Of a DNA stretch of 36,145 nucleotides, positions 780-33,344 are shown piece after piece. Made by a program: the position numbers and the translations under genes. This DNA is from Desulfatiglandales bacterium. Its GTDB lineage: Bacteria > Desulfobacterota > DSM-4660 > Desulfatiglandales > HGW-15. Location: assembly GCA_046481735.1 (NCBI GenBank), contig JAWOJI010000087.1, positions 1 to 36,145 of the forward strand. The letters run 5' to 3'. Position 1 is the stretch's first letter. Every line of letters starts with the position of its first letter. The notes under the pieces are model-generated. The model was not told the origin of the DNA, ran no database searches, and worked only from the letters and a program-made list of their open reading frames with translations.

Positions 780-1057
780 TGCTTAATATAATTAGGCAAT
801 TCTTGAAAAAATGATAAGCAAAATAAAAAACCGTAATAATAATATGCTATTATAATTCCTAATGTAAATAAGTTTCTGCTTGACAAGGGGCTTGTTATTG
901 TAAACAATGACAATTCATAAAGGAGTACTGCAGCTCAAATGAGCTTTTTTCATGGGATTTCTTAAAATCATTAGATATAGATATATGCTGCAATTATAGT
1001 GTGTTACAAGAAATATCCGGCAATCATTTCGAAGATATCCGATAAATCCTAGGCTGC
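780..1057. promoter_or_regulatory. AT-rich divergent intergenic control region between arsR (-) and tetR (+)
   Basis: This 278-bp stretch is markedly AT-rich compared with its flanks. It contains TTGACA at 880-885, the small palindrome ATTGTaaACAAT at 897-908, and a short repeat ATATCCGg/ATATCCGa at 1013-1042. No clean -10 box could be assigned. Confidence 0.35.
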
Positions 1058-1771
1058 ATGGACATGGCCAACCGTAGTACCAGAGAAGACACCAAGAACC
1101 GCATCATCGAGTCAGCCAAGAAGCTTTTTGCAGAACAAGGCTATCAAAAGACGACGGTGGTGGACATCTCAAAGCAGGCCGGCCTTTCGGAGGCGGCCTT
1201 GTACGAATATTTTCAGGGAAAAGAGGACCTGCTTCTTGCCATTCCAGATCTCTGGGTTTCGGATCTCCTGGAAGATGCCAGAGAGCAGCTCTTTGGAATC
1301 AGGGGGGCTGAGAACAAGCTGAGGAAATTCCTCTGGTGGAATCTGCGACGGATCGAACAAGCCCCGCTTGACGCCAAGATCGTCTATCTGTTTTTGAAAA
1401 CCAATGCCAATTTCATGAGCACGCCGGTTTATGCCAATGTGAGGAAGCTCTACGCCTACCTTTTGGACATTTTCGAAGAAGGGAAAAAAAGCGGAGAAAT
1501 GAAGGAGACGTTGAATACCTATGCAGCCAGGGACATTTTTGTAGGCACCATGGACCACATTGTCACCCGGTGGCTTCTGAAGGACATGAATTATTCCTTG
1601 TTTGAGAACCTGGAAGCGTTGTTCGAGCTCATGGTAGACGCTTTCAGGGCAAGAACGCTGCAGGGGAAGGAATGCAGGGCTGAAAACGGGGTCAACGGCG
1701 AAGGGCGGGAGCACCGAAGTGCGATGGTGAATGGAACAATGGAACAAAGGCGGGTTGAGGGCGTCTATTAA
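1058..1771 (+). CDS. TetR/AcrR-family transcriptional regulator
   Basis: The N-terminal HTH is typical of the family: RIIESAKKLFAEQGYQKTTVVDISKQAGLSEAALYEYFQGKEDLL. At 237 aa it has a longer C-terminal tail than usual. Confidence 0.85.
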   Translation: MDMANRSTREDTKNRIIESAKKLFAEQGYQKTTVVDISKQAGLSEAALYEYFQGKEDLLLAIPDLWVSDLLEDAREQLFGIRGAENKLRKFLWWNLRRIEQAPLDAKIVYLFLKTNANFMSTPVYANVRKLYAYLLDIFEEGKKSGEMKETLNTYAARDIFVGTMDHIVTRWLLKDMNYSLFENLEALFELMVDAFRARTLQGKECRAENGVNGEGREHRSAMVNGTMEQRRVEGVY

Positions 1772-1798
1772 CCGGTCAATTTTTCAAGGAGGGTGAAC

Positions 1799-3787
1799 AT
1801 GGCAAAGGTATTGTTTCAGTGGGACTATTCAAAATATCCCGGGGCGGAGAAATACCCCCACCTGTTCAAACCGATACAGGTCGGCGGTTTGACGGTTCCC
1901 AACCGCATCGTGTACGCGGCTACCGAGGACAATCTGAACAGTCACGACGGTTTCGTGACCGACGCGGATGTGGCCTACATGCGGAGCAGGGCTGAAGGCG
2001 TTGTGGGGGGGATGTGCTTCATGCAGGGAGTCTACATGGACCCTGAGCGTAAAGGCCAGGGATATGTGGGGCAAGCCGCATGCTGGGATGACAAGTTCGT
2101 TCCTGGATTGAGGCGTCTTGCCGATGCGATCCATGGGGAAAAAGCAATCGCAGGCTTCCAGCTCATGGATTGCGGTCGGGTGGGCGCTGTGGAGGTCCCC
2201 TTCGGCAAGGGACCCTCTGCGGTACCCCAGCGCTTGAGAATCTTCCGGCCCATGCATGAGATGACCAAGGATGAGATCAAGACCATGATCCAGCAGCATC
2301 TGGATTCTGCAAGACGCGGCCTTGAAGCCGGATTCGACGTGATCGAGATTTCCGGGATCGTGGGCTATCTCATTTCCAACTTCATCTCAAGCTACACCAA
2401 CCGCAGGACGGATGAGTATGGAGGAGATATTCGGGGCAGGATGAAAGCGGTGGTGGAAATCATTGAAGGGCTGAAAAAGATTTGTCCCAAAGATGTTCCT
2501 GTCGGGATACGCCTTTGCGCTGAGGAACTGCTTGACGATGTGCGCGGCAACACGCCGGAAGAATCGATGATGTCCTACAAGATCGCGGAGGAGGCAGGCG
2601 TCGATTACATCAGCGTTACCGCGGGCTGGCAGGAGTCTATCGTTCCGGTCATCAGCCGCGATGTCCCACAGGGAAGCTGGCTCCACTTGGCAAAGCGCTC
2701 AAAGGAAAATGTGAAAGTGCCCATCATGATGGCCTACAGGCTGTTTGATCCGGCTATTCCTCATGCAGCCGTTGAGAAGGGCGAGCTCGACATGTGGCAG
2801 ATGTGCCGCCCCATGATCGCAGACCCCCTGATGCCGAAGAAGGTGCTGGAGGGGAAGGAAAAGGAGATCCGGTGGTGTGTGGCTTGCAACCTCTGCCTGG
2901 CCCGCCTGTTCCGGGACGCTCCCATGACCTGTTACATCAACCCCCTGTGCGCCCACGAACATGATCCCAAGTTCACCAGTCCTCCGGCTGCAGAGGAGCA
3001 AAAGAACGTCATGATCGTCGGCGCCGGCCCTGCAGGGTTGGAGTGCGCCTATACGGCCGCCCAGAGGGGCCATGAGGTCCATGTCTACGACAAGAGAGAG
3101 AATCTGGGAGGGACCCTTCTGGAGGCTTCGAAAGCGCCTTACGGCGACAACGAACTCTTCACCTGCATCGACTACCAGAAAGTCATGTGTGAAAAGGCTG
3201 GTGTCAGCTTCCATTTAGGGACTGAGGTCACGGAGGATCTCATTCGGGATGAACTCCCAGACAGCGTGGTTCTCGCGACCGGCCCGGTTTACGCCAAGCT
3301 CAGTGTCCCGGGATCCGAGGGAGTGAAGGCGGTCACAGTCCTGGATGTGCTCAGGGGCGACGCCCGAGTGGGCGAAAAAGTTCTCGTGTGGGGCACCAGG
3401 AAACCCGGCATCGGTGTGGCGCTGCACTTGGCCAAGCAGGGCAAGAAAGTCACCATCGCGGGCAAGGAGAAGTCCGCAGGTTTTGACATCAACCCCTCTT
3501 TCAAATGGCGGTATATGATCTATCTGAGACAAAACGGAGTGAAGGCTTACAATGACGTTACGATCGACGAGATCCAGGGCAATGAAGCGATCCTCAAGAC
3601 CTTTGACGGGTTCCGATTCCCTGTGAAATTCGATACTCTGGTGGTGGCGGAAAGAGGGCCCAACGAGAATCTCAAGAGCGTGGTTCAGGGAGAGGGCATT
3701 GAGCTCTTCGTCATTGGTGATGCGCTTGTACCCCGCAACCTTTCCAGCGCGGTGCACGATGGATTTCGCATTGGAATAAGGATTTAA
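1799..3787 (+). CDS. old-yellow-enzyme family FMN/[4Fe-4S]/FAD oxidoreductase (2,4-dienoyl-CoA reductase / 2-enoate reductase / naphthoyl-CoA reductase-like)
   Basis: The ORF track starts at GTG 1793. The ATG at 1799 is better spaced from AAGGAGG (1787-1793). It has an OYE TIM-barrel N-terminus (PNRIVYAATEDN..., HGEKAIAGFQLMDCGR). A Cys motif CVACNLCLARLF...C...C follows, as in the FadH/enoate-reductase [4Fe-4S] site. Next comes a dinucleotide fold, VMIVGAGPAGLECAYTAAQRGHEVHVYDKRENLGG. The second Rossmann-like motif looks degenerate (VLVWGTRKPGIGVAL). Confidence 0.85.
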   Translation: MAKVLFQWDYSKYPGAEKYPHLFKPIQVGGLTVPNRIVYAATEDNLNSHDGFVTDADVAYMRSRAEGVVGGMCFMQGVYMDPERKGQGYVGQAACWDDKFVPGLRRLADAIHGEKAIAGFQLMDCGRVGAVEVPFGKGPSAVPQRLRIFRPMHEMTKDEIKTMIQQHLDSARRGLEAGFDVIEISGIVGYLISNFISSYTNRRTDEYGGDIRGRMKAVVEIIEGLKKICPKDVPVGIRLCAEELLDDVRGNTPEESMMSYKIAEEAGVDYISVTAGWQESIVPVISRDVPQGSWLHLAKRSKENVKVPIMMAYRLFDPAIPHAAVEKGELDMWQMCRPMIADPLMPKKVLEGKEKEIRWCVACNLCLARLFRDAPMTCYINPLCAHEHDPKFTSPPAAEEQKNVMIVGAGPAGLECAYTAAQRGHEVHVYDKRENLGGTLLEASKAPYGDNELFTCIDYQKVMCEKAGVSFHLGTEVTEDLIRDELPDSVVLATGPVYAKLSVPGSEGVKAVTVLDVLRGDARVGEKVLVWGTRKPGIGVALHLAKQGKKVTIAGKEKSAGFDINPSFKWRYMIYLRQNGVKAYNDVTIDEIQGNEAILKTFDGFRFPVKFDTLVVAERGPNENLKSVVQGEGIELFVIGDALVPRNLSSAVHDGFRIGIRI

Positions 3788-3801
3788 GGAGGAGGTTTAC
3801 C

Positions 3802-4326
3802 ATGGCATTTGATGCGGAAAAAGAAATTACGAAATTGTGGGGGAATCTGCGCAGCGCCCAGAGTGAGATCGGCCGCACCTATTTCAGGTGGCGGCAGGCG
3901 GCACTGGCCCTGGCGGGACCCGACGCAAACCCCCTGGATGTGAGTTTAAAGGCGGCCGAAGTAATCGGCAAAGAACTGGGAAAGCAATCCCTCCCCCGGC
4001 TCAACTGGCTGAAGGGCGAAGAAGCCTGGTTGAGGAGTCTTGCCGGAGGCATTGCCGCCCAATGGATTATGCAAGGGGCTGTCGTGAAGGTGGAAAAGGG
4101 CGAAAAGCCTACCGAAGTTTTCATTACATGGGACAGATGCCCCTGGCCCTCGTATGCCAAAGAATACGGCGTCAAGATGGAGGAGGATGTGCTGTGTTGC
4201 GACAGAATCCTTCAAAGCATCCTTCCCGATGTGAATGTCTTCTTCAACGTCAACTATAAGATTGAAACGTTAAAGGCGATTCCCAGAGGGCAGGGTGTTT
4301 GCCTCAGACGACTGTTTAAAGCTTAA
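3802..4326 (+). CDS. hypothetical Cys-containing protein, possibly ATC-hydrolase-like (PF14196-like) fold
   Basis: A strong RBS (AAGGAGGAGG) sits upstream of ATG 3802. The C-terminal pattern RCPW...(x20)...LCCD...(x40)...GQGVCLRRLF resembles my memory of the L-2-amino-thiazoline-4-carboxylate hydrolase family. This assignment is unverified. Confidence 0.55.
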   Translation: MAFDAEKEITKLWGNLRSAQSEIGRTYFRWRQAALALAGPDANPLDVSLKAAEVIGKELGKQSLPRLNWLKGEEAWLRSLAGGIAAQWIMQGAVVKVEKGEKPTEVFITWDRCPWPSYAKEYGVKMEEDVLCCDRILQSILPDVNVFFNVNYKIETLKAIPRGQGVCLRRLFKA

Positions 4327-4343
4327 TACAGAGGAGTGAAAAA

Positions 4344-4550
4344 ATGGCTGCTCAAATAGATCCCAAGAAGTGTACCATGTGTGGAGGGTTAGTCCAGCCG
4401 TTGTGTGTTGAAATATGCCCTGATTCCGCGGTCAGGGTGCAGGACAGCCGAGTGGTGGTCACGGAATTCCTGTGTGAGGACTGCAATGAGTGCGGCGTGG
4501 TCTGCCCGGACAGGGCCATAACGGTGACAGTGGATAAAGTCACTTTTTAA
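4344..4550 (+). CDS. 2x[4Fe-4S] ferredoxin (first cluster motif with extended spacing)
   Basis: Motifs are CTMCGGLVQPLCVEICP (CxxCx7CxxxCP, an Alvin-type-like insertion) and CEDCNECGVVCP (canonical). RBS is GAGGAG. Confidence 0.85.
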   Translation: MAAQIDPKKCTMCGGLVQPLCVEICPDSAVRVQDSRVVVTEFLCEDCNECGVVCPDRAITVTVDKVTF

Positions 4551-4630
4551 CACACGGTCGACGGGCCATGCCATCTCCGGCTGCACCATCCGGGGATGGC
4601 CGGCCTTCCCTTTTTCAAGGAGGCGATACG

Positions 4631-5068
4631 ATGAAGGTCAACAAGATAGATCATATCTGCATTGCGGTGAAGAACCTGGATGAAGCCAGAAAGGTCTGGG
4701 AACCCATCATGGGAAAAGCGAAGGCGGACGACGAATACATTGACGAACCCGAGAAGATCAGGGTGGCGAGGTATTGGGTTGGTGAAGTGGGTTTCGAGCT
4801 GATGGAATCCACCACGCCTGACGGTGATGTGGCCAAGTTTATTGAGAAGAACGGTGAGGGCGTGATGCTTATCAGCTTTAATGTGGACAACACCAGGAGC
4901 GCCGTTGAGGAGTTGAAAGGCAAAGGCTATCCCTTCATCCCCGACAAGCGGGGAGAGGTGGCCAGACCTTTCCGGGATTGCGAATTTGCCTTTATCCATC
5001 CCAAGAAGGTCAACGGCGTGCTCCTGGAACTCATCGACTACAAATGGGAAGAGCTTAAAAAGCGGTAG
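4631..5068 (+). CDS. VOC/glyoxalase-family protein, methylmalonyl-CoA-epimerase-like
   Basis: The track ORF starts at 4568. I place the start at ATG 4631 (MKVNKIDHICIAVKNLDEARKVWEPIMG) after AAGGAGG. The layout is epimerase-like (IDHICIAV ... GFELMES ... KFIEKNGEGVMLISFNV ... LLELIDY). Confidence 0.75.
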   Translation: MKVNKIDHICIAVKNLDEARKVWEPIMGKAKADDEYIDEPEKIRVARYWVGEVGFELMESTTPDGDVAKFIEKNGEGVMLISFNVDNTRSAVEELKGKGYPFIPDKRGEVARPFRDCEFAFIHPKKVNGVLLELIDYKWEELKKR

Positions 5069-5091
5069 CGAAAACAAACAGGACCCCTTGC

Positions 5092-5301
5092 ATGGGAAAG
5101 CAATATATTCCGTACGAAGTCTATCTGGTCTACGTCGATTTGGACAAGTGCGACGGATGCGAGCAATGCATCGTCTATTGCCCGGTCAATGTTTTTGATT
5201 TTTCCATCAAGGCTTATCCCAACCGGCCCCAAAACTGTCTGGGGTGCCGGACCTGCGAGGCGGTCTGCAAGTCCAAAGCAATCATTATTACGGAAATATG
5301 A
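5092..5301 (+). CDS. 2x[4Fe-4S] ferredoxin
   Basis: Motifs are CDGCEQCIVYCP and CLGCRTCEAVCKSKAI. Length is 69 aa. Confidence 0.8.
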   Translation: MGKQYIPYEVYLVYVDLDKCDGCEQCIVYCPVNVFDFSIKAYPNRPQNCLGCRTCEAVCKSKAIIITEI

Positions 5302-5410
5302 ACTGACGGCGCAAGGCACACGGGACAAGGCGGGGCGCTCAAACTGAACATGCAGGTGTTTGCCGCGACCCGTGCACCTTGTACCGTGCACCGCTTGTTG
5401 AGGTGAGTTT

Positions 5411-6775
5411 ATGACGGATGCAATCATGATCATCGGCGCGGGCGTTGCGGGCATTAATTGCGCCCTGAACGCCGCAAAATACGGGGCAAAAGTCTATCTA
5501 GTGGATGATACGGCGAGCATCGGGGGCATGATGGCAAGGCTCGACAAAACCTTTCCCACCAATGACTGCTCGATCTGCATTGAGGCGCCCCAAATGTACG
5601 AGGTGGACAATCACCCCAATATCGAGATCCTCACCAGCACCGAGGTTCGGAAGGTCTCGAAGGCGAACGGCGGTTTTAAAATCCGTCTTGTCAGGAAGGC
5701 GAAGTTCATCGACGAGGAGAAGTGCACGGGATGCCGCGCATGCATGGACGCCTGCCCGGTCAGCGTGCCTGATGAGATGGACGGCAAGATCGGCGGAACC
5801 CGCAAGTTGATCTACATGCCCTTTCCCCAATCCGTCCCGAACAAGGCCGTCCTGGATCCCGACTGCCGGTACGGAAAAAAGAGGTCCGAAGGATCCTGCG
5901 TTGGGGGATGCGTGGTGGATTGCAGCCAATGCCGGGAATGCCCGATTGCTCTTTGCGTTGCCGCATGCCGGAAGGAGGGGAAAGACGCGGTTCGGTTGTG
6001 GCAGGCCAACAAGAACGTGGACCTGGAAGTCAAAAGCATCGTGGTGGCCACGGGGATCATTGATGCAAAGCCTCCCAAGGGACTGCACGGATATGACGTT
6101 TACGACAACGTAATCACCAACACACAATTTGAGCGGTTGATGAATGCGGGTGGCCCTACGGCCGGTCAAATCATCAGGCCCTCGGACAAAAAACACGCCC
6201 ACAAAATCGCCTGGATCCAATGCGCCGGGAGGGGCTTGGACCACGGCACGCCCTATTGCTCCAAGGTCTGCTGCATGATAGCCACCAAGCAGGTCATTAT
6301 TTCCAAAGAGCATGACCCGTCCGTGGAGACAACCATCTATTACAATGATCTCAAAGCCTACGGCAAAGGGTTCTGGGGTTTTTATCAAAAAGCAAAGGAG
6401 CATGGAGTCAAGTATGTGCGGGCCAGGCCTTACGATGTGTTCGAGCTTCCCGAAAGCAAGAACCTGTTGATTCGCTACGAGGACCTGGATACGGGAGAGC
6501 TGAGAAAAGATGAAGTGGAGCTTCTGGTCCTGTCCACGGGGCTCATCCCGAGCGATCGAAACGAAAGGCTTGCAAAGATTTTGAAGATACGGCTTGGGAA
6601 GCTCGGTTACTTTGAAGAGAAGGATCCTTTCCTGTCCCCCCTGGAGACGGACGTGCCGGGAATCTATCTTTGCGGCGGCGCCACAGGTCCGATCGACATC
6701 TCGGAGTCGGTGGTTCAGGCTACGGCGGCGAGCATGAAAGCGATTCTCCATGGAGCCGAAAAAGCGGCGGCTTAA
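5411..6775 (+). CDS. HdrA-like FAD/FeS oxidoreductase (heterodisulfide reductase subunit A family, lacking the N-terminal Cys-cluster domain)
   Basis: It has IMIIGAGVAGINCALNAAKYGAKVYLVDD (FAD fold), DKTFPTNDCSICI (HdrA signature), CTGCRACMDACP (ferredoxin insert) and YCSKVCCMIATKQ (HdrA CC motif). RBS is GAGGTGAG. Confidence 0.85.
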   Translation: MTDAIMIIGAGVAGINCALNAAKYGAKVYLVDDTASIGGMMARLDKTFPTNDCSICIEAPQMYEVDNHPNIEILTSTEVRKVSKANGGFKIRLVRKAKFIDEEKCTGCRACMDACPVSVPDEMDGKIGGTRKLIYMPFPQSVPNKAVLDPDCRYGKKRSEGSCVGGCVVDCSQCRECPIALCVAACRKEGKDAVRLWQANKNVDLEVKSIVVATGIIDAKPPKGLHGYDVYDNVITNTQFERLMNAGGPTAGQIIRPSDKKHAHKIAWIQCAGRGLDHGTPYCSKVCCMIATKQVIISKEHDPSVETTIYYNDLKAYGKGFWGFYQKAKEHGVKYVRARPYDVFELPESKNLLIRYEDLDTGELRKDEVELLVLSTGLIPSDRNERLAKILKIRLGKLGYFEEKDPFLSPLETDVPGIYLCGGATGPIDISESVVQATAASMKAILHGAEKAAA

Positions 6776-6917
6776 GGAGAAGGAAACAGAATGCAAAAAG
6801 CGGAATACAGGAGGCAGCAGGACAACCCTCTTCATGACCCCACCAATATTGAGGGTCCATTCCATAGATTCTGTATCCAGAACTCCTGAATTCTCAGTGT
6901 TGTGCGAGGAACATTCC

Positions 6918-8978
6918 ATGAGCGAGGATTTGAGAATCGGCGTTTTCGTTTGTGACTGTGGTTCCAACATTGCAGGCGTCGTCAATGTGCCCGAGGTGGT
7001 TGAATACTCGAAAACGCTTCCAAACGTGGCATATGCCGATGAGGGCAAGTGGTCCTGCTCTGTAGACGCGTTGGGCTCAATGCAGCAGGCCATCAAGGAT
7101 CATCAATTAAACCGCGTTGTCATCGCATCCTGCACGCCGAGGACTCACGAGCCACTTTTCAAGCAGACGGTGAAGGAAGCGGGCCTGAACCCCTACCTCC
7201 TGGAATTTGTCAGCATCCGGGAGCAGGTCTCCTGGGTTCACATGAACGAGCCTGATGCAGCCACCCGGAAGGCCAAGGATCTGGTCAAGATGGGAGTGGC
7301 CAAGGCCGCGCTTCTGGAAGAAGGAGAAGAGATCAGGCTCCCTGTGGGGAAAGAGTGCTTGATCATCGGCGGCGGTGCGGCAGGAATGAATGCCGCTCTC
7401 AGTGTGGCCGCCCAGGGATTCAGGGCTATCATCGTGGAGAAAGAGCCCCGGCTGGGAGGCCTACTGAACAAAATCGGCACAGTATCGCACGAGCACGGCG
7501 AGATGGCCGCCGAGGAGATCCTGAGAAGAGCCAGGGAGGTTGTAGCGGCCGATCCGAACGTCACGGTATACACGAGCGCTGTCATCGAGGATGTGAAGGG
7601 GTATATCGGCAATTACAAGGTCAAGATCAAGGCGAATGGAACAGCGGAAAGTCTTGATGTGTCCACCATCATCGTGGCGACCGGTATGAGGGAGGTCAAA
7701 CCCGAAGGGCTGTTCCTTTACGGAGAGGATTCCCGGGTGGTCACCCAGCTTGAGCTTGAAGGCAAGCTCAAAAGCTCACAGACAGGAAACCCGAAGCACG
7801 TCGTCATGATCAACTGCGTGGGGTCCAAGAACGAGACACGAGGGTGCTGCAACATCGGCTGTCCTGTTTCTGTGAAGAACGCCCTGGCCCTGAAGCAAAT
7901 CGATCCGGACACGAAGGTTTACGTCCTTTACAGGGACCTGAGCATGGTGAGGGAGGAGCACTTTCACCTGGATGCAGCCAAGGGGGCCGGGGTGAAGTTC
8001 ATTCGCTTCCCGGATGACCGATACCCGGAAGTGACTAGGGAAAAAGGGAACCTTCAGATCAAGGTGCACGATATCCTAAGCGGGAGGGAGTTCAAATTTC
8101 CTGCCGATCTTCTCGTCCTGACCGTGGGATTTGAAGGGGACGAGACGATCGAGGCACTCAGAGGACATCTGAAGGTGTCCACCAATGCAGAAGGTTTTTT
8201 CCAGGAGCGGCACATCAAGCTGGGGCCCCTTGATTTTCCTGCGGACGGGATCGCCCTCTGCGGTTGCGCAAAGAATCCCAAGAGCTACAAGGAAACCTGC
8301 GAAGAGGGGATCGGGGCGGCAATGAGGGTGTCCATCCCCATGAAAAACGAACACATTGAAGCCGAAGGGATCGTGGCGGACATCGACCTATCGAACTGCA
8401 ATTTTTGCGGCCTCTGTCATAAACGCTGCCCCTACGGCGCCATCCTGGTGAACGAGAACAAGGAACCTTCCGTGGTAAAAGCGCTCTGCAAGGGTTGCGG
8501 TCTTTGCGCAGCCGATTGTCCAAAGGAATGTATCACCATCGTTCACTACTCGGATGAGCAGCTTTTGGCCCAGGTGGAGGCCGCATTAGAGGAGAATGCG
8601 GAGAGAAAGATCCTTGGCTTTGTTTGCCACTGGTGCGCTCTGGGCGGAGTGGACATGGCCGGCGTGAGCCGGCTTCAGTACCCGACCAACGCCCGCTTGA
8701 TCAGGGTCATGTGCTCGGCCCGGGTGCCGATCAAGCTCATCGAGCGGGCTTACGAAAAGGGTGCGGCCGGCGTCCTGGTGGCGGGGTGCGAGTTCCCTAC
8801 CTGCCACTACATCTCGGGGAATTATGCCTGCGAGACAAGGGTCAAAAGGGCGAAAAAGATTCTGGCCAGGAAGGGCTACGATCCGGAGAAGCTTTGGAAT
8901 GTGTGGTGCTCGGCCGCAGACGGTCCCAAGTTTGCGAACACCATGAGGGAGATGGCCAAGCAATTGAATCTTGTATGA
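6918..8978 (+). CDS. HdrA-like flavoprotein fused to a C-terminal MvhD (methyl-viologen-reducing hydrogenase delta subunit) domain
   Basis: The track ORF starts at 6750. I place the start at ATG 6918 (MSEDLRIGVFVCDCGSNIAG...) after GAGGA (6906-6910). It has the HdrA N-terminal Cys motif VCDCGSNI and the FAD fold LIIGGGAAGMNAAL. The C-terminal ferredoxin motifs are CNFCGLCHKRCP and CKGCGLCAADCP. An MvhD-like tail follows: GFVCHWCALGGVDMAG...RVMCSARV...GVLVAGCEFPTCHY. Confidence 0.85.
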   Translation: MSEDLRIGVFVCDCGSNIAGVVNVPEVVEYSKTLPNVAYADEGKWSCSVDALGSMQQAIKDHQLNRVVIASCTPRTHEPLFKQTVKEAGLNPYLLEFVSIREQVSWVHMNEPDAATRKAKDLVKMGVAKAALLEEGEEIRLPVGKECLIIGGGAAGMNAALSVAAQGFRAIIVEKEPRLGGLLNKIGTVSHEHGEMAAEEILRRAREVVAADPNVTVYTSAVIEDVKGYIGNYKVKIKANGTAESLDVSTIIVATGMREVKPEGLFLYGEDSRVVTQLELEGKLKSSQTGNPKHVVMINCVGSKNETRGCCNIGCPVSVKNALALKQIDPDTKVYVLYRDLSMVREEHFHLDAAKGAGVKFIRFPDDRYPEVTREKGNLQIKVHDILSGREFKFPADLLVLTVGFEGDETIEALRGHLKVSTNAEGFFQERHIKLGPLDFPADGIALCGCAKNPKSYKETCEEGIGAAMRVSIPMKNEHIEAEGIVADIDLSNCNFCGLCHKRCPYGAILVNENKEPSVVKALCKGCGLCAADCPKECITIVHYSDEQLLAQVEAALEENAERKILGFVCHWCALGGVDMAGVSRLQYPTNARLIRVMCSARVPIKLIERAYEKGAAGVLVAGCEFPTCHYISGNYACETRVKRAKKILARKGYDPEKLWNVWCSAADGPKFANTMREMAKQLNLV

Positions 8979-9015
8979 TCACCCGGCCGCGACGGTTATC
9001 AAGGAGTTGAGTGGT

Positions 9016-10755
9016 ATGGATGCGAAGCAGGCATTGGCAGAGAAATTCAGTGATGTGACCATGTTCAGAACCTGTGAGCAGTGCGGCTGTTGCAGCTCCG
9101 CATGCCCCATCACCGGCGTCAATCAGTTCAACGTGCGAAGAATCGTGCGACACATTGAACTGGATCTTCCCGAGGAGGTGGCTCAGACGGGCCTTCCCTG
9201 GGCCTGCACAACCTGCGGGCGCTGTGAGACCGTCTGCCCGAACGGCATTGCGATCCTGGACATCATGAGACCGCTCAGGGCCATGGCGCCTGAAACGGTC
9301 GTCCCCGATGAGATCCCCCCCTGCACGGCAGCCTGCCCTGCAGGTATTGATGTCCCGGGATACTTGAGATGGATTGCCCGGGGTAAACCGGAAGAGGCTT
9401 ACAAGGTGATCCTGGAAAAGATCCCCTTCCCCGGAATTCTGGGCCGGGTTTGCATTCATCCCTGCGAAACCAAGTGCCGACGGGGAGAGGTCAACCAGCC
9501 CATCGCGATTTGTGCCCTGAAACGGTATGCGGCGGATAGAGGAGGAGACCTTTTTAAAGCGGCCGCGCAGATCAAGAGAGCTACAGGCAGGAAGGCTGCA
9601 GTCATCGGGTCCGGCCCGTCAGGCCTCAGCGCCGCATTCTACCTGAGAAAAAAGGGCCACGAGGTAACGGTCTTTGAAGCAAGAGCGAAGCCTGGAGGAA
9701 TGATGCGCTACGGCATTCCCTTTTACCGTCTGCCTGAGGATGTTGTCGACAAGGAGATCCGTCAGGTTCTCAGTTTGGGAATCCGGCTTGAAACAGGCAA
9801 GGAGCTGGGCAGGGATTTTACCCTGGAGGATCTGAAAAAGGAAGGCTACGAAGCCACGTACATTGCCACAGGCCTCCAAAAGAGCCGAAAAATCGAGATG
9901 GAGGGCTCCAATCTCGAAGGCGTCCTCTGGGGAGTGGACTTTCTGTCTGAAGTGAGCGAGGGAAAAGAGATCCGGGTCGAGGGCAGGGTGCTTGTCGTAG
10001 GCGGAGGCAATGTGGCGGTGGATGTGGCTCTCACCGCTTTGCGGACAGGGGCCAAGGAAGTGACTATGGCGTGTCTGGAAAACAGGGAGGAGGTGCCGGC
10101 CAGTTCCTGGGAGATCGCGCAGGCCCTGGAGGAAGGGGTAACCCTCCTGCCTTCCTGGGGGCCGCACCGCATCGTGGGGGTAAACGGAAAGGTGAAAGCC
10201 GTTGAGCTCGTCACGTGCACGAGCGTGTTTGATGAAAAGGGCGATTTTTGCCCTGCTTTCGGGGATGAGAAAAAGATCGTTGAAGCCGACCAGGTAATCC
10301 TGGCCATAGGACAAGCTGCAGACCTTTCTTTTCTTTCCGGGGACGGCGAGATCCGGCATGAGCGAGGTCTTATCGTTATCGATGCGGAGACCCACAAAAC
10401 CGGCATGGCCGGTGTTTTTGCGGGCGGCGATGTGGGCCGCGGCGCCGGGGCCGTTATCGACGCGGTTGCCGCCGGCCGAAAGGCCGCCTCTTCCATGGAC
10501 AGAGCGCTTGGCGGAAACGGAGTTCTCGACGAGAGCTTTTCAGAGAAACTGGATGCCGCCTCCTACACAGGCAAGAGAGACAGGGGCTTTGCCGATTTGA
10601 CGAGATCCACGGCCGAAGCATTGCCTCTGGAGGAAAGGCGCAACAGCTTTAACGAGGTGGAAGGATGCTTCAGTGACGAGCAGGCTGTGGGCGAGGCCAG
10701 CAGGTGTCTTCAATGTGATTTCGAAGTCAAACTTGCCAAGCTACTCCGTTCATGA
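9016..10755 (+). CDS. fusion of an HdrC-like 2x[4Fe-4S] domain with a GltD/NfnB-like NAD(P)H-dependent FAD oxidoreductase (glutamate synthase small-subunit family)
   Basis: I place the start at ATG 9016 after AAGGAG (9001-9006). The N-terminus has CEQCGCCSSACP and CTTCGRCETVCP. The GltD-type N-terminal FeS region follows: CTAACPAGIDVPGYL...CIHPCETKCRRG. Two dinucleotide folds are present, AAVIGSGPSGLSAAFYL...GGMMRYGIPFYRLP and VLVVGGGNVAVDVA, ending with GVFAGGD. Confidence 0.85.
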   Translation: MDAKQALAEKFSDVTMFRTCEQCGCCSSACPITGVNQFNVRRIVRHIELDLPEEVAQTGLPWACTTCGRCETVCPNGIAILDIMRPLRAMAPETVVPDEIPPCTAACPAGIDVPGYLRWIARGKPEEAYKVILEKIPFPGILGRVCIHPCETKCRRGEVNQPIAICALKRYAADRGGDLFKAAAQIKRATGRKAAVIGSGPSGLSAAFYLRKKGHEVTVFEARAKPGGMMRYGIPFYRLPEDVVDKEIRQVLSLGIRLETGKELGRDFTLEDLKKEGYEATYIATGLQKSRKIEMEGSNLEGVLWGVDFLSEVSEGKEIRVEGRVLVVGGGNVAVDVALTALRTGAKEVTMACLENREEVPASSWEIAQALEEGVTLLPSWGPHRIVGVNGKVKAVELVTCTSVFDEKGDFCPAFGDEKKIVEADQVILAIGQAADLSFLSGDGEIRHERGLIVIDAETHKTGMAGVFAGGDVGRGAGAVIDAVAAGRKAASSMDRALGGNGVLDESFSEKLDAASYTGKRDRGFADLTRSTAEALPLEERRNSFNEVEGCFSDEQAVGEASRCLQCDFEVKLAKLLRS

Positions 10756-11067
10756 TTGGAATGTTGGATTCATGGAACGATGGAATGATTGACTCAGGAC
10801 TTTGTGAAAATGATATCCGCCATGCCGGATTTCATTGATCGCCCCTGCCGGGCTCTTTTCTCAGATCTCAGACCTTAGACATCTTGCTTACCTGTCAAGT
10901 AGGCCTTCGTTACAATCAAGGCATTGAACTTGTTTATCCTATGAATTGTGCTATTTTTTGAGCAGGGAAAATCGAATCGCATGATTCCGCGATTCCAATA
11001 TTCCAATTGCGGAACAAAGCGGAAGTCAGAAACGGCGGGAAGAAATCCTGGCAAGAAAGAGGGCCTT

Positions 11068-11742
11068 ATGCGCATTTTGCTGGTGGAGGATGACTTGAAG
11101 ATCGCCTCTTTTGTGATCAAGGGTCTCAAGGAGGCAGGTTTTGCCGTAGACCATGCCGTGGATGGCGAAGACGGGCTCCACCTTGCTCTTTATGAACCTT
11201 ATGACGCAGCGGTTATCGACATCATGCTTCCGAAGCTGGATGGACTCATGCTTATCGAGAGGCTCAGAGCCCAGGGGCGGAACACGCCGGTAATCATATT
11301 GAGCGCCAAAAGATCTGTGGACGATCGAGTGAGAGGTCTCCAGTCAGGTGGAGACGATTACCTCACCAAGCCGTTTTCCTTTGCCGAACTTCTCGCGCGG
11401 TTGCAAGGGCTGATCAGGCGTGCCACGCGAGCGGCGAAACCCGTTCTTCTCAAGGCAGGGGATCTCTCTTTGAGCCTCCTCACCCGGGAAGTTCGCCGGG
11501 GCGACGAAAGGATCGACCTTCAGCCGCGCGAGTTCGCACTGCTTGAATACCTGTTGCGTAACGAAGGAAACGTGCTGTCCAAGACCATGATTCTGGAACA
11601 CGTTTGGGACTACAGTTTCGATCCTCAGACCAATGTGGTTGATGTGCTGGTTTGCCGACTGCGCAACAAGGTAGACAGGGATTTCAAGCAGAAGATGATC
11701 CACACGATTCGCGGGGTGGGCTATGTTCTCAAGGCCTCTTAG
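11068..11742 (+). CDS. OmpR-family response regulator (CusR/CopR-like)
   Basis: I place the start at ATG 11068 ([13 protein letters not shown]...). It has a receiver domain with DIMLPKLDG and a winged-helix C-terminus ([25 protein letters not shown] ... [11 protein letters not shown]). Confidence 0.9.
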
Positions 11743-13129
11743 CGATCTGACGCGCACGGTGGGGTTCAGGCTCACCCTATGGTATTCCGGCATGTTCATC
11801 CTGATCATGTCCTTGCTTTTCGGATTCGTCTATTTCATGCTCTCCGCTTCACTGACAAGGCAGGACCATGAGATGATTCGCTCGCGACTCCGCGAGCTCT
11901 CAGCCGCTTATGCGCAAGGTGGGGTGGAGGGTCTGGAAATAGAGGTGACAGGGGAGAAGAAATTCAAGAAAAGCAATTCGTTTCTGGTGCGTGTTGCTGA
12001 TCCGAGGAATACCACGCTCTTCCTGATCCTCCCCTACCAGTGGGCCGAGTTTGACCTCAGGGGGCTAGAAGAAAAGCCTTCTGGTGATTGGCTCAGGGTC
12101 GCCTCAAGAACGGGAAAAGAAGTGCTCGAAGTGGCATCGACCGGTCTGGCTTTTGGTTACACCCTCCAAGTCGGCAAGAGCACGGAAGAGAGGGAGAAGA
12201 TCCTGAAGGATTTTCTCCGTATTTTCGTGGCAGCGCTGATTCCCCTGGTTCTGTTAGGTTTTGTCGTTGGGATTTTCCTCTCACGCAGAGCCCTGCACCC
12301 CATTCGCCAGCTCACCGAAACGGTGCGATCCATTACCAGCGGGAGAATCGACGCCCGCGCTCCTGCGCTTCGAAGCAGAGACGAACTCGGCGATCTGATT
12401 GATCTATTCAACACGATGGTTGGGAAAATCGAGAAACTCATCCGCGGGATGGGGGAGTCCCTCGACAATGTGGCCCATGATCTGCGGACGCCGATGACAC
12501 GGATGAGGGGGATCGCCGAAATGGCGTTGCGAACGGATGGGGACGTGGGCGTTTGCCGTGAAGCCCTTGCCGACTGCCTCGAAGAATCGGAGAGAATCCT
12601 CGAGATGCTCAACACCCTCATGGATATTTCAGAAGCTGAATCCGGCACAATGACCCTTGAACTCCGTAGGGTGAATGTTTCTGATGTTATGGATAAGGTG
12701 TCGGATCTCTACAGATACGTTGCCGAAGAGAAAGAAGTGCAAATCGAAACCGCCTGCCCCCGAGAGCTTTCCTTTGTGGTGGACCCGCTACGGGTGGGGC
12801 AAGCTCTAGGCAACCTTGTCGATAATGCGATTAAATACACGCCCCCGGGAGGTGTTGTGAGCGCGAAGGGTGAGAAGCAGGATGAAAAAGTCCTCATTGC
12901 TGTGAGCGACACGGGAATCGGCATAGGACCCGAAGAACTTCCGAGGATTTGGGATCGTCTCTACCGAGGCGATAGAAGCCGTTCCCAAAAAGGTCTCGGT
13001 TTGGGGCTGAGCCTGGTCAAGGCCATCGTGGAAGCCCACAAGGGGGAAGTGAAGGTCACCAGTGAGCCGAGCAAAGGTTCTGTCTTCACAATCTGTCTTC
13101 CGCTGGACCCGTCGTCCGTCTCCGATTAG
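11723..13129 (+). CDS. sensor histidine kinase (two TM segments, HAMP, HisKA, HATPase_c)
   Basis: It overlaps the response-regulator gene by 20 nt. It has an H-box [11 protein letters not shown], an N-box [14 protein letters not shown]1 VSDTGIGI and G2 GLGLGLSLV. Confidence 0.9.
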
Positions 13130-13294
13130 AATGCCAACCTTTCAAAACTGTAACGTTAAGGAAAGGTTTATGAAAGATTCATCGCTTAGATTTCCTTAAA
13201 ACAAAAATGAAACTCTTCCGCTTTGCCCAAGAGAAGCGTGAAGAAACGAGAGCCCGCAAGGGGGTCACAAGGGAGTCAGGAAAGGATCTAAGCG

Positions 13295-13597
13295 ATGGCA
13301 AAAGAACAAAAAAACACCGCAGAGAAAGCTCGGCTTGAACTGGTCGAATGTTCCCGTCAACCCGGAAAACTTCGACTTTCCCAATACGCTTGCGGCCGGA
13401 GATATCTTCGCGCGCAGGACAGCCTGGATGATATTCCGGAAAGCGATTTCGGCATCACCCTCAGATGGAGTCTACAGGTCTGCCGAACATGCCCTCAGGG
13501 TCTGACCCACTCCAAGAACATTCAGGTGCAATCCATTCCAACTGCAATGCCCAGGAGCAGAAGGATTCGTTTTGGAAAGAAAAGGAAAAGGAATTGA
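13295..13597 (+). CDS. hypothetical small basic protein with four Cys (possible zinc ribbon)
   Basis: This 100-aa ORF is preceded by AGGAAAGGA. Its stop lies 5 nt before the first candidate ATG of the HtrA gene (13603). I recognise no family. Its 3' part overlaps the longest version of the HtrA ORF. Confidence 0.3.
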   Translation: MAKEQKNTAEKARLELVECSRQPGKLRLSQYACGRRYLRAQDSLDDIPESDFGITLRWSLQVCRTCPQGLTHSKNIQVQSIPTAMPRSRRIRFGKKRKRN

Positions 13598-13626
13598 TTT
13601 GGATGGATCCGAGTGAAGGATGGAGA

Positions 13627-15045
13627 ATGCGCATGGGTAGAGAGGTTGAGAGTTATGGCTGGGTCCACATAGGCGTTCTTATAACAGGTTTGCTTCTTGC
13701 TTCAGTCTCTCCCTGCCTTTCAGATCCTGGCGTCGGCTCTGTAGACTTGAGAACCGCCATCAGCGATGTGGTGAGAACGAATATTCCGGCGATCGTCCAC
13801 ATCGAAGCCGTCCGAGAGCAAACCGTTTTTTTCCCCAGGGGCCCGTTTGACAACGAACCTCTGCTGCAATTCCTATACATGCTGCCGAAAAACGCCCTGG
13901 GAGAAGGAAACCCGAGAGGCACCGGGGTTATCATCGATCAAAGGGGGAACATTCTTACCTCCCATCATGTTGTCGGGGGCGCCAAAGAGATTATCGTTTC
14001 TATGGACTCGGGACAAATCTATCCGGCGACCTTGTTAGGCTCCGATCCAAAAACCGATCTGGCTGTGATCCGCGTTGTTTCGCAAGATCCCCTGCCTCAT
14101 GTCGATTTTGGAGATTCGGATAAGCTTGATATGGGTGAATGGGTCATTGCCATAGGCCATCCGAGAGACCGGGATCCCATTGTGACCAGCGGGATCATCA
14201 GGGCAAGGCATCGAAGAGGAGTCATGGATCCTGGAACGTTCAAAGATCTTCTCCAGACCGATGCGGCCATCAACAGCGGATACTGCGGCGGACCCTTGCT
14301 GAATCTTCGGGGAGAAGTGATCGGAATCAATTCGGCTCTTGTATCCGATGCGCCGGACTTGCGCGGCATCTCTTTTGCAATTCCCGGTAATGCAGCGCTC
14401 CACGTAGCAGAGAAGCTCATTGCCCAAGGGGAAATAAAACGGGGTTGGTTGGGCATTCGCATCAAGGAAGTTGCATCCAGGAGCGGCAAGGTTGGAGTCG
14501 ACACAGAAGGTGCCCTGGTCTATGATGTGCTGCAAGGAGGACCAGGGGACAGGGCGGGTTTGAAAAGCGGTGATGTGGTCATCGCTTTCCGCGGCAGGCC
14601 CGTTGAGGATGTGGCGTCGCTGCGCGATGCCGTTACAAACGCCCAGGTGGGAGAGGAGGTTCGGTTGACCGTTATCCGTCAGAACAAAGAGGAGCATGTG
14701 ACCGTCCTGATCGGAAATGCGGAGGACGGAAGCAGGATCCCAGGAACACCGATAAAAGACCATCTTGGAGCGGATATGAGGCCCGTCACTGCCGATGAGG
14801 CCAGGAAGTTCAGCATCCAGCCGCATCAGGGTATCATGATTACCTGGGTGGACCCGCAGGGACCGTTCGGCCGGGTAGGATTCGAGGCAGGGGATATCAT
14901 ACTCGAAGTGAACGGCCATGCGTTCAAGAACCCGGAAGGTTTTCTTTCTCTGCTCAGCTCCCTTGACCAAACCCAGCGGATAACGATTTTTGCCCTTGAC
15001 CACAGGAGTGGTCACAGGGGATATGTACAAGTCAAAATGAAATGA
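13627..15045 (+). CDS. HtrA/DegP-family trypsin-fold protease with two PDZ domains; nucleophile position is Cys instead of Ser
   Basis: The start is ambiguous (13465, 13603, 13627 or 13633). A signal or TM segment (VHIGVLITGLLLASVSPCLS) follows. Triad context is TSHHVVGG (His), KTDLAVIRV (Asp) and INSGYCGGPLLN. The TGC codon at 14284-14286 occupies the place where the family has GNSGGP. Confidence 0.85.
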   Translation: MRMGREVESYGWVHIGVLITGLLLASVSPCLSDPGVGSVDLRTAISDVVRTNIPAIVHIEAVREQTVFFPRGPFDNEPLLQFLYMLPKNALGEGNPRGTGVIIDQRGNILTSHHVVGGAKEIIVSMDSGQIYPATLLGSDPKTDLAVIRVVSQDPLPHVDFGDSDKLDMGEWVIAIGHPRDRDPIVTSGIIRARHRRGVMDPGTFKDLLQTDAAINSGYCGGPLLNLRGEVIGINSALVSDAPDLRGISFAIPGNAALHVAEKLIAQGEIKRGWLGIRIKEVASRSGKVGVDTEGALVYDVLQGGPGDRAGLKSGDVVIAFRGRPVEDVASLRDAVTNAQVGEEVRLTVIRQNKEEHVTVLIGNAEDGSRIPGTPIKDHLGADMRPVTADEARKFSIQPHQGIMITWVDPQGPFGRVGFEAGDIILEVNGHAFKNPEGFLSLLSSLDQTQRITIFALDHRSGHRGYVQVKMK

Positions 15046-15064
15046 TATCATCAATAAGGAGAAC

Positions 15065-28188: not shown

Positions 28189-28189
28189 C

Positions 28190-32822: not shown

Positions 32823-32927
32823 GGAAAGCCTCTCCAGCGAGCGAAACTGCCTCGCGAAACGATTCCCATGATGACAGCTCCCAAGCGGTTTTGTCAAATC
32901 AGATTGGATTTTCCGAGGAGAAGACCA

Positions 32928-33344
32928 TTACAGATCGAGAATGACCTGGGCCTTCCAGTCACCTTTTTCCCGGCGAATTCGGAGTTGGTGATAGGTGGCG
33001 CTCTTGACGGTGGTCTCTATGGGATGACGACTCTCATCATAAGCCTCTCCTCGAACGGTCGCTACAAGCGCTCGATCATTTAAGGAAAGAAGGTCAAATT
33101 CACGAAACAGGAGTCCCTGGGTTTCAAAAAGATAGATGAATTCATTGAGCCAGTCGACGAAAAGCTCTTCCAGGTCATTGGCCTGAAGTCTGATGGTTCG
33201 GGTTTCCCTCAATTGAATGGTTTCAGGATCGGTGATGACCCGGAAGAGAGCCTGTGCGGCATGGCGGAAGAGGTCAGGCAAGGTTTTGCCGAAGACCTGG
33301 ATGCCCTGATCTCCTGCATGATCAAGAAACTCGAACCCACGCAC
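32928..33344 (-). CDS. archease (RtcB activator family)
   Basis: It uses a GTG start after GAGGAAAT. The sequence (M)RGFEFLDHAGDQGIQVFGKTLPDLFRHAAQALF ... VKSATYHQLRIRREKGDWKAQVILDL has the typical archease N- and C-terminal signatures. Confidence 0.85.
   Translation of the reverse strand: MRGFEFLDHAGDQGIQVFGKTLPDLFRHAAQALFRVITDPETIQLRETRTIRLQANDLEELFVDWLNEFIYLFETQGLLFREFDLLSLNDRALVATVRGEAYDESRHPIETTVKSATYHQLRIRREKGDWKAQVILDL

Follow-up and report, generated by a model that had tools for sequence, protein, structure and literature searches.

A conserved Desulfatiglandales operon combines an OYE-family reductase with a split HdrA and an NfnB-like module: a candidate bifurcating electron supply for a CoA-ester reductase

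HdrA modules with varied partners, HdrA-MvhD fusions and GltD-containing HdrA proteins are already known. The known partners of HdrA modules include hydrogenase, formate dehydrogenase, Flx, MetFV and the tungsten benzoyl-CoA reductase (BCR). In class II BCR, a double HdrA passes electrons to the CoA-ester reductase via its inserted ferredoxin domain, and BamD receives the high-potential electron; this HdrA, BamE, is a fused dimer with a single bifurcating FAD, and the HdrC/HdrB position takes the high-potential electron both in methanogenic Hdr and in BamDE (preprint 10.64898/2026.04.10.717634). Published work concludes that NAD(P)H is not the donor of naphthoyl-CoA reductase (NCR) and the Apr reductases, and papers from 2019 to July 2026 call the physiological electron donor of the type III aryl-CoA reductases (NCR and the phenanthroyl-CoA reductases) unknown. 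The stretch of DNA analysed here (the window) comprises 36,145 nucleotides of a Desulfatiglandales bacterium (contig JAWOJI010000087.1). It contains an operon in which the gene for an OYE-family (old yellow enzyme) reductase lies next to HdrA-, MvhD- and GltD-like genes. The operon is tentatively interpreted, with somewhat less than even confidence, as encoding a soluble HdrA-type bifurcating complex which supplies electrons via dedicated ferredoxins to an OYE CoA-ester reductase, following the logic of class II BCR.

The operon comprises a TetR gene and eight co-directional genes 3' of it, nine in total and all on the + strand, according to the listing of open reading frames (ORFs) and to Pfam/NCBIfam scans (Table 1). 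An earlier reading of the sequence, made without database searches (the sequence-only reading), had placed nine genes after TetR; the co-directional, close-set cluster stands, but nine is the count with TetR included. The scans bear out the gene families listed in that reading: the OYE, two ferredoxins, a VOC protein, a pair of HdrA proteins with MvhD, and an HdrC-/GltD-like protein. Gaps of 14-23 nt separate the first six genes; the two gaps that follow measure 109 and 142 nt, and the GltD-like gene overlaps the HdrA-MvhD stop by 8 nt. Domain scans found no CCG domain in any ORF of the window. The reported absence of a CCG-type HdrB or HdrD therefore holds for the window but not for the whole family, as CCG domains are present in the variant loci L021, L030, L037 and L083 described below.

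The gene order is highly conserved. A synteny scan of one genome per GTDB species, by tblastn with the window proteins, found 80 loci with OYE orthologues at 72-91% identity, and the order and strand of the window cluster recur in essentially every locus long enough to show them. Synteny of the OYE with Hdr-like genes in relatives had been named beforehand as the observation on which a joint system would stand or fall, and it is found strongly across these 80 species-level genomes. The association is also kept at lower OYE identity: the genes are co-linear at 66% (L082), convergent at 71% (L091) and divergent at 60% (L083, L086). Flanks beyond the cluster are not conserved, so the cluster is a self-contained module. 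All 80 loci are metagenome-assembled genomes (MAGs), and no isolate genome with the cluster was identified. The MAGs are mostly labelled Desulfatiglandales, Desulfobacterales/Desulfobacteraceae, Syntrophaceae or unclassified Deltaproteobacteria, and one is the Delta1 symbiont of the gutless worm Olavius; sources include sediments, groundwater and the gutless-worm symbiont. Four loci with 74-77% identity (L019, L022, L034 and L060) carry Anaerolineales, archaeon or Gammaproteobacteria labels; mis-binning is more likely here than a true distribution.

The Oxidored_FMN TIM barrel of the OYE (PF00724, E 4e-58) spans residues 24-357. Its top match in the PDB is NCR (6qkg; E 3e-131, 39% identity over 638 positions), and its match to E. 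coli FadH (1ps9) has an E value of 2e-80. NCR had been missed as the best solved relative in the sequence-only reading. The barrel is followed by a four-cysteine [4Fe-4S] linker (C362, C365, C368 and C380), which aligns with the NCR motif, and then by the FAD motif VGAGPAG at 409-415; linker and FAD motif are invariant in 74 orthologues. Residues 530-541 carry the second dinucleotide motif, VLVWGTRKPGIG, in which GTRKPG is aligned opposite the NADPH motif GCGGIG of FadH (GxRxxG versus GxGxxG). This motif had been described as degenerate. It is non-canonical, but it is not decayed: G-(N/T)-R-K-P-G-I-G is invariant in the 74 orthologues, a constrained feature. By its motifs, the OYE is a protein without a canonical NAD(P)H site, and the sequence suggests that it needs a protein electron donor. 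Databases label the OYE as NADPH-dependent 2,4-dienoyl-CoA reductase, a label which is contradicted by the motif evidence; the aligned second motif rules out an ordinary NADPH-dependent FadH.

The OYE is related to NCR but is not its ortholog. The proton-donor Tyr192 and several thioester-contact residues of NCR are conserved. Among the NCR residues that depress the flavin potential or block the NADPH site (reference set from PMC6502838), most are changed in the OYE (E341Q, V38E, F375L, W459L, E446T, E541K and F573S); only F379, R245 and D649 are kept among the potential-tuning residues. The second motif is non-canonical as in NCR, yet the NCR blocking residue W459 is Leu. In a neighbour-joining tree of 55 sequences, which is distance-based only, the OYE family falls in a superclade sister to the NCR superclade, with 37-42% identity to NCR-clade members. 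The canonical second GxGxxG is missing in most members of both superclades. Members of the OYE family are 76-96% identical and all are 661-663 aa long, so the start of the window OYE is probably at nt 1799. An NCR ortholog is ruled out by the 39% identity, the sister-clade position and the lack of conservation of the tuning residues.

The sequence-only reading had described two HdrA paralogs, one of them fused to MvhD. Two HdrA-like genes are present and one does carry MvhD, but by alignment to solved HdrA structures the two proteins are complementary halves of one HdrA. HdrA_s aligns to Methanothermococcus/Methanothermobacter HdrA (residues 143-563 of 5odc_A and 145-559 of 9sfi_A) over the part that comprises the thioredoxin-reductase-like FAD domain and the inserted ferredoxin domain, and it retains the KTFPTNDCSIC motif (C53, C56). 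HdrA-MvhD aligns to residues 2-236 and 320-652 of 5odc_A, and the inserted domain is skipped. It consists of the N-terminal domain, an FAD domain without inserted domain or DCSIC motif, the C-terminal ferredoxin domain and then MvhD (FlpD domain PF02662, residues 621-740, E 8e-42; MvhD part against 5odc_D, E 3e-35). The inserted ferredoxin domain, the N-terminal domain and the C-terminal ferredoxin domain of HdrA are each present once, split over the two proteins. The HdrA match to 5odc_A has an E value of about 1e-116, and the top NCBIfam model is HdrA2, of the MvhD-fused type. A CC-containing four-cysteine site by the flavin is invariant in both halves (C271/C283/C287/C288 in HdrA_s; C356/C366/C367/C371 in HdrA-MvhD), both have GxGxxG, and the cluster cysteines of HdrA-MvhD are all invariant. 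The inserted ferredoxin domain of HdrA_s (residues 105-186, window 5723-5971) has 12 invariant cysteines, one cluster's worth above canonical HdrA. The twelve include an extra group, C152/C163/C167, in an insertion of about 20 residues relative to solved HdrA structures, and are enough for a third cluster. As listed, the HdrA-MvhD ORF overlaps the end of the preceding gene by 26 nt. Only 1-2 of 46 orthologues keep its first 56 residues, C15 and C52 among them; the start is therefore probably M57 (nt 6918), which leaves the 142-nt gap. The two halves are inferred to pair as a heterodimer that has a single entry side and a single low-potential exit, and so to resemble BamE.

The GltD-like protein joins an HdrC-like domain to an NAD(P) module. 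Its N-terminal 110 residues are 35% identical to the HdrC of L030 (E 2e-18), and residues 112-585 match NfnB-like modules, led by 9bov, 9n5u and 8oh5 (E 1e-96 to 1e-105) and followed by NfnB (4ylf/5jca); E values for NfnB-like modules overall range from 1e-72 to 1e-105. The protein contains PF14691 (Fer4_20, E 9e-21) and PF07992 (E 6e-27), and both dinucleotide motifs, GSGPSG and GGGNVA, are intact. In the C-terminal tail (residues 566-582, window 10666-10716), C566 is present in 29 of 34 sequences and C579 and C582 in all 34. When aligned with the long Stn/molybdopterin-type relatives 9bov and 8oh5, this tail falls where their following domain starts, and it may be a partial or interface cluster site.

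Replacement of the GltD-like gene in variant loci bears on which arm the OYE can occupy. In L021, L030 and L037 an HdrC of 153 aa and a two-CCG HdrB of 293 aa are found in its place; in L083 an HdrD-like Fer4_8+CCG protein follows HdrA-MvhD, adjoining EtfBA and an acyl-CoA dehydrogenase. The OYE is kept in all four. Because HdrC and HdrB, or HdrD, replace the GltD-like gene while the OYE stays, it is the NAD(P) module, and not the OYE, which fills the HdrBC arm as the counterpart of HdrB; the place of the OYE must be on a different arm. The proposal in the sequence-only reading that the OYE replaces HdrBC as acceptor arm is not supported and is rejected on the basis of these variants and of the fusion of the HdrC-like domain to the NAD(P) module. 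The HdrC and HdrB, HdrD-like and EtfAB proteins of the variants are typical high-potential acceptors, in line with the wiring set out below. Hydantoinase A/B genes are found after the HdrC and HdrB genes of L021, L030 and L037 (for example, L030 11809-13148).

The remaining proteins of the operon are small. A small Cys-containing protein had been noted after the OYE; it is present as p174, but just three of its four cysteines (C113, C133 and C167) are near-invariant. Its match to PF14196 is weak (E 0.009), and homologues of p174 beside related OYEs carry precomputed PF14196 matches. An AlphaFold2 model from a 34-sequence alignment has a pLDDT of 92. Foldseek matches of this model are TRAPPC3/Bet3 and the phenol-sensor domains of PoxR/DmpR/MopR, with weaker matches to H-NOX (TM 0.5-0.6). 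The predicted fold is thus Bet3/V4R/H-NOX-like, a type used to hold small hydrophobic or aromatic ligands, and p174 may either bind a ligand or substrate or serve as an accessory subunit. With 271 proteins in 68 representative clusters, the family is very small, and it is stand-alone; no p174 fusions (Rosetta-stone proteins) were found across 1.84 billion representatives. A hypothetical protein from a Desulfatiglandales MAG matches the window p174 at 100% identity, and some homologues are labelled Planctomycetes.

Fd1 has eight cysteines and an unusual first motif, CxxCx7CxxxCP; it is proposed from its sequence and context as a candidate direct electron donor to the OYE. The OYE-p174-Fd triad is kept in distant relatives (L085, L083, L086), even without nearby Hdr genes. 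Fd2 is absent in OYE relatives of 60-71% identity (L082, L083, L086, L091). The VOC protein matches TIGR03081 below the cutoff (E 3e-24), and its PDB matches are methylmalonyl-CoA epimerases (about 1e-10); by homology it would act at the alpha-carbon of a CoA thioester. Orthologues are 138-148 aa long, so its start is probably M22 (nt 4631).

These components suggest the following wiring. HdrA_s and HdrA-MvhD would pair into a heterodimer that corresponds to one HdrA dimer, much as BamE does in the form of a fused double HdrA. Reduced ferredoxin would feed electrons in via the MvhD/C-terminal ferredoxin side, and the HdrA flavin would split each electron pair. The high-potential electron would pass through the HdrC-like clusters and the NfnB-like FAD to NAD(P)+ (to a disulfide or ETF in the variants), while the low-potential electron would exit through the enlarged inserted ferredoxin domain of HdrA_s. 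It would be carried by Fd2 and/or Fd1 to the FAD of the OYE, and from there via the [4Fe-4S] cluster to the FMN. FMN would then donate a hydride to a conjugated or aromatic acyl-CoA at its beta-carbon, and Tyr192 would give the proton. The VOC protein probably acts on the alpha-carbon of the product, as an isomerase or epimerase, p174 probably binds a hydrophobic or aromatic ligand, and the FadR-like TetR would switch the operon on with acyl-CoA. With respect to class II BCR, the OYE would take the place of the tungsten BamBC and NAD(P)+ that of BamD/ETF. By our own arithmetic, with potentials of around -500 mV for reduced ferredoxin and -320 mV for NAD(P)+, a value of about -680 mV would in principle be within reach of the low-potential electron. 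The general idea of the sequence-only reading, a HdrA/MvhD/NAD(P) module coupled to an OYE CoA-ester reductase and possibly serving as low-potential supply, is retained here; its specific wiring is not.

Several points weigh against this wiring. The whole interpretation rests on sequence and gene context, and the wiring is assigned purely by homology to methanogenic HdrABC and BamE; FeS chains can run either way. Most NCR low-potential residues are changed, so the OYE may not work at extreme potential. For the MvhD arm, the small ferredoxins are the only obvious donors among the products of the operon. It is because of these two deficits, the missing low-potential residues and the missing encoded donor, that the wiring is held with less than even confidence. 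The NfnB-like FAD could itself be the bifurcation site. In L062, neither a GltD-like nor an HdrBC gene follows HdrA-MvhD, and a FadB-like gene is directly next. OYE relatives at 50-55% identity (L085, L087) keep the OYE-p174(-ferredoxin) core, but HdrA is not adjacent. A sub-lineage with a p174 about 75% identical (L077, L080, L071, L064, L074) has OYE-p174-Fd1-VOC, but Fd2 and the Hdr genes are missing downstream of it; the contigs of L071, L077 and L080 run on into unrelated genes, and the L064 and L074 contigs end soon after VOC.

Other arrangements of the same parts are unlikely to different degrees. The wiring may run as a confurcation, which is considered unlikely: NAD(P)H via the NfnB-/HdrC-like arm and reduced ferredoxin via the inserted domain would reduce the HdrA flavin, and an electron pair at about -400 mV would leave via the C-terminal ferredoxin/MvhD side to Fd1 and the OYE, so that NAD(P)H pays half of a reduction that it cannot drive alone. 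This is canonical HdrA wiring reversed, with an operon-encoded partner for each arm; an OYE without the extreme low-potential residues of NCR fits a moderately negative substrate, and class II BCR has a confurcation step with NADH and reduced ferredoxin, though in a different module. However, the HdrBC, HdrD and ETF modules of the variants would then be donors, an unusual direction for them. The only characterised HdrA complex with a CoA-ester reductase has the reductase on the inserted-ferredoxin arm, and any available reduced ferredoxin could reduce Fd1 directly. The scheme closest to the sequence-only reading follows Bcd-Etf/caffeyl-CoA-reductase logic, with NAD(P)H as mid-potential donor and the OYE with a high-potential enoyl- or dienoyl-CoA (about 0 mV) driving ferredoxin reduction in an exergonic step, by which energy would be conserved. 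The missing NCR-type residues would suit it, as would the FadH-like nature of the OYE and its annotation as 2,4-dienoyl-CoA reductase; the FadR-like regulator, FadB-like neighbours, thiolase/DUF35, family III CoA-transferase and HGD-D dehydratase gene fit a beta-oxidation or reductive amino-acid fermentation branch. It is nonetheless rather improbable, as the HdrC-like domain, by which the high-potential arm is recognised, is joined to the NAD(P) module and has no association with the OYE, and variants with HdrBC or HdrD and the OYE but no NAD(P)H module would have no donor. The NADH-dependent Hdr complex FlxABCD-HdrABC is also reported to attach its NADH module via MvhD, not HdrC, which is a precedent against the scheme.

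It is similarly improbable that there is no joint complex, and that the Hdr/NfnB-like genes encode a stand-alone NAD(P)H:ferredoxin oxidoreductase (Nfn-/transhydrogenase-like) that only keeps the dedicated ferredoxin pool reduced. The OYE, p174, Fd1 and VOC protein would then be a separate soluble system, and co-location would reflect co-regulation only. The OYE triad does occur without Hdr genes (L085, L087 and the L077/L080/L071 lineage), and the widest gaps, of 109 and 142 nt, are those bordering the Hdr half and inside it. In Desulfococcus multivorans, HdrA-MvhD adjoins a pyridine-nucleotide oxidoreductase without an OYE (PMC5109826), and NCR is monomeric in vitro (PMC6502838). Set against this, a mid-potential donor cannot reduce ferredoxin via HdrA without a higher-potential acceptor, which the Hdr half alone does not offer; the OYE association also survives three gene arrangements, down to 60% identity. 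Use of the OYE as an acyl-CoA dehydrogenase, in a reverse Bcd-Etf-type confurcation to NAD+, is ruled out by our own reasoning that donors averaging about -230 mV cannot reduce NAD+. A literature search on dienoyl-CoA oxidase found nothing.

Three features make a CoA ester the probable substrate: a FadR-like regulator, a protein resembling methylmalonyl-CoA epimerase and conservation of the thioester contacts. The regulator's top NCBIfam match is the Bacillus-type FadR (E 8e-30, below cutoff). Neighbouring genes in relatives vary. A FadB-like 3-hydroxyacyl-CoA dehydrogenase/enoyl-CoA hydratase fusion is present in 12 core loci and in L085, L087, L091 and L092. A class I/II aminotransferase (about 393 aa) lies between VOC and Fd2 in 15 Desulfobacterales loci; loci with this insert include L033, L035, L038, L047, L049, L051, L053, L055, L057 (9030-10211), L063, L065 and L072. 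Other recurrent neighbours are a thiolase with a DUF35/ChsH2-type protein, IorAB-type 2-oxoacid:ferredoxin oxidoreductases, hydantoinase A/B, an M24 creatinase-like peptidase and a family III CoA-transferase; an XDH/Hcr-like trio and an HGD-D dehydratase are found in one locus each. In L086, an aminotransferase and IorAB are in the same strand run as the Hdr genes, which is consistent with reduced ferredoxin as electron source. The Hdr-free OYE-p174-Fd triad of L085 adjoins an IorAB-type ferredoxin-reducing enzyme. At most, these neighbours point to a route resembling beta-oxidation for an acid that is aromatic or derived from an amino acid. An indoleacetate-like pathway with 2-aminobenzoyl-CoA as its end point, as might be read from L085, is speculation; the window has no such genes. 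In Desulfatiglans anilini, 4-aminobenzoyl-CoA reduction has been assigned to Hcr-like enzymes in published work.

The region 5' of the TetR gene has a GC content of 0.44, compared with about 0.55 in the operon, and five of nine sigma-70-like matches on the + strand fall at 763-1000. No convincing palindrome was found there for a TetR operator, just a weak AT-rich 10-nt inverted repeat at 835-857. A promoter/terminator scan inside the operon was uninformative, and an Rfam scan of the window gave no match.

Table 1. Features of the operon and its upstream region. Coordinates are window positions; the last column gives loci with the gene over loci long enough to show it.
Feature	Coordinates	Strand	Assignment	Loci with gene
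AT-rich intergenic region 5' of TetR gene	780..1057		likely promoter/operator region	
TetR-family regulator, FadR/YsiA-like (acyl-CoA-responsive type)	1058..1771	+	TetR_N E 2e-17; TetR_C_4 (YsiA-like) E 2e-14	46/61 (directly upstream of OYE)
OYE-family FMN/[4Fe-4S]/FAD CoA-ester reductase (putative), 664 aa	1793..3787	+	Oxidored_FMN + Pyr_redox_2	
p174, 174 aa	3802..4326	+	divergent PF14196 (ATC_hydrolase-like), marginal match	58/58
Fd1, 68-aa 2x[4Fe-4S] ferredoxin	4344..4550	+	Fer4 families; eight Cys	57/57
VOC-superfamily protein, methylmalonyl-CoA-epimerase-like	4568..5068	+	Glyoxalase_4 E 9e-14	56/56
Fd2, 69-aa canonical 2x[4Fe-4S] ferredoxin, directly upstream of HdrA_s	5092..5301	+	Fer4 families	53/56 (core family)
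HdrA_s, 454-aa HdrA-like	5411..6775	+	half-HdrA: FAD domain + inserted ferredoxin domain	45/47
HdrA-MvhD, 742 aa	6750..8978	+	complementary half-HdrA fused to FlpD/MvhD	40/41
GltD-like protein, 594 aa	8971..10755	+	Fer4_8/Fer4_17 (HdrC-like), Fer4_20, Pyr_redox_2 (GltD/NfnB-like)	32/36

The flanks of the window hold unrelated genes. An ArsR regulator lies upstream on the opposite strand. Downstream, at 10948-16516, the gene for an OmpR-type response regulator shares 20 nt with that for a HAMP histidine kinase, and two HtrA/DegP-like PDZ proteases come next in tandem; together they look like a unit for envelope stress that is unrelated to the operon. Farther downstream are an acyl-CoA synthetase, an inositol-phosphate synthase, a Liv-type ABC transporter and RtcB/archease. 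At 27157-30334 on the - strand, a Beta_elim_lyase ORF of 380 aa with a TTG start shares 110 nt with the 3' end of the ADP-forming acyl-CoA synthetase gene (714 aa) upstream of it; its Pfam match starts at residue 43, so the true start is probably downstream of the listed TTG. The RtcB RNA ligase is paired with archease at 31368-33344 on the - strand. The RtcB ORF covers profile positions 73-426 only, so its start is possibly mis-called or the protein is N-terminally short.

Full-text literature searches found no paper linking an OYE-family reductase with HdrA/heterodisulfide-reductase modules. The operon is a concrete donor candidate for the sister clade of the OYE-type aryl-CoA reductases: a dedicated ferredoxin fed by an HdrA-type module. 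If the joint complex is real, a flavin OYE reductase would be a new HdrA partner; in addition, the operon would be an example of an HdrA split in nature and of an HdrC-NfnB fusion exchangeable with HdrBC or HdrD. With OYE identities of 74-96%, the cluster is highly conserved; it is also widespread in uncultured groups, and therefore probably serves a common step of anaerobic carbon degradation. A bolder reading, in which HdrA-type bifurcation drives the OYE below ferredoxin potential and the operon represents an unrecognised reductase class, is very doubtful. If it were true, a monocyclic aryl-CoA could be dearomatised or reductively de-functionalised without ATP and without tungsten, and a long-sought kind of physiological donor system for OYE-type aryl-CoA reductases would be revealed. 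Candidate substrates would be benzoyl-CoA analogues and ortho-substituted benzoyl-CoAs such as 2-aminobenzoyl-CoA.

Comparison with described systems shows which parts of the operon are familiar. FadH (1ps9) has the same three-domain architecture as the window OYE, but FadH works on its own with NADPH via GCGGIG, where the OYE has GTRKPG. The FMN TIM barrel, four-cysteine [4Fe-4S] linker and FAD domain are common to the OYE and the type III aryl-CoA reductases (NCR, 6qkg; DHNCR; AprB-E), and NCR, like the OYE, has the proton-donor Tyr and thioester contacts and no canonical NAD(P)H motif. The surroundings differ. Unlike the window, the NCR locus of an N47-like MAG (L081 10001-16284) contains a second OYE (652 aa) and a 541-aa NuoE/NuoF-like protein (2Fe-2S_thioredx + Complex1_51K), and no HdrA. 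A molybdopterin oxidoreductase and an FAD_binding_2 protein lie upstream in L081; the NuoE/NuoF-like, OYE, molybdopterin and FAD_binding_2 neighbours are possible electron-supply partners for NCR. Other NCR-clade loci (L088, L089, L090) have an HdrD-like pair of FAD_binding_4 (about 490 aa) and Fer4_8/CCG (about 434 aa) proteins, with molybdoenzymes and a small ferredoxin and again no HdrA, which also sets them apart from the window. The p174 and VOC partners are seen only with the OYE clade of the window and not with the NCR clade.

The HdrA domains, clusters and MvhD of the methanogen complexes MvhAGD-HdrABC and HdrA2B2C2 are all recognisable in the window. In contrast to these complexes, the window HdrA is split, hydrogenase and HdrB are missing, the HdrC-like domain is on the NAD(P) module and the partner is an OYE. 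The GltD-like protein shares the Fer4_20 clusters, FAD and NAD(P)H Rossmann motif with NfnAB and the Stn/NfnABC modules (4ylf, 5jca, 8oh5, 9bov, 9n5u). It differs from NfnAB in the added N-terminal HdrC-like di-cluster and in the C-terminal tail with the invariant C579 and C582; domain scans found no gene for an NfnA partner ([2Fe-2S]/FAD, NAD-binding) in the operon or the rest of the window. The likeness to the class II BCR BamBCDEFGHI of Geobacter metallireducens is in the overall plan. An HdrA-type module with two thioredoxin-reductase-like FAD domains would serve a CoA-ester reductase, an MvhD-type adaptor is at the entry, the inserted domain would feed the reductase via ferredoxin-like clusters, and the high-potential module is derived from HdrC/HdrB; in variant L083 an HdrD-like protein even lies beside EtfAB. 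The window differs from Bam in having a flavin OYE and not the tungsten BamB, two HdrA genes and not a fusion, and an MvhD fused to HdrA. It has no BamGHI (NuoEF-type) input, and neither AFOR (tungsten BamB type) nor Complex1_51K domains were found among the window ORFs scanned. The high-potential arm, which ends in BamD/ETF in the Bam complex, would here end in an NfnB-like NAD(P) site.

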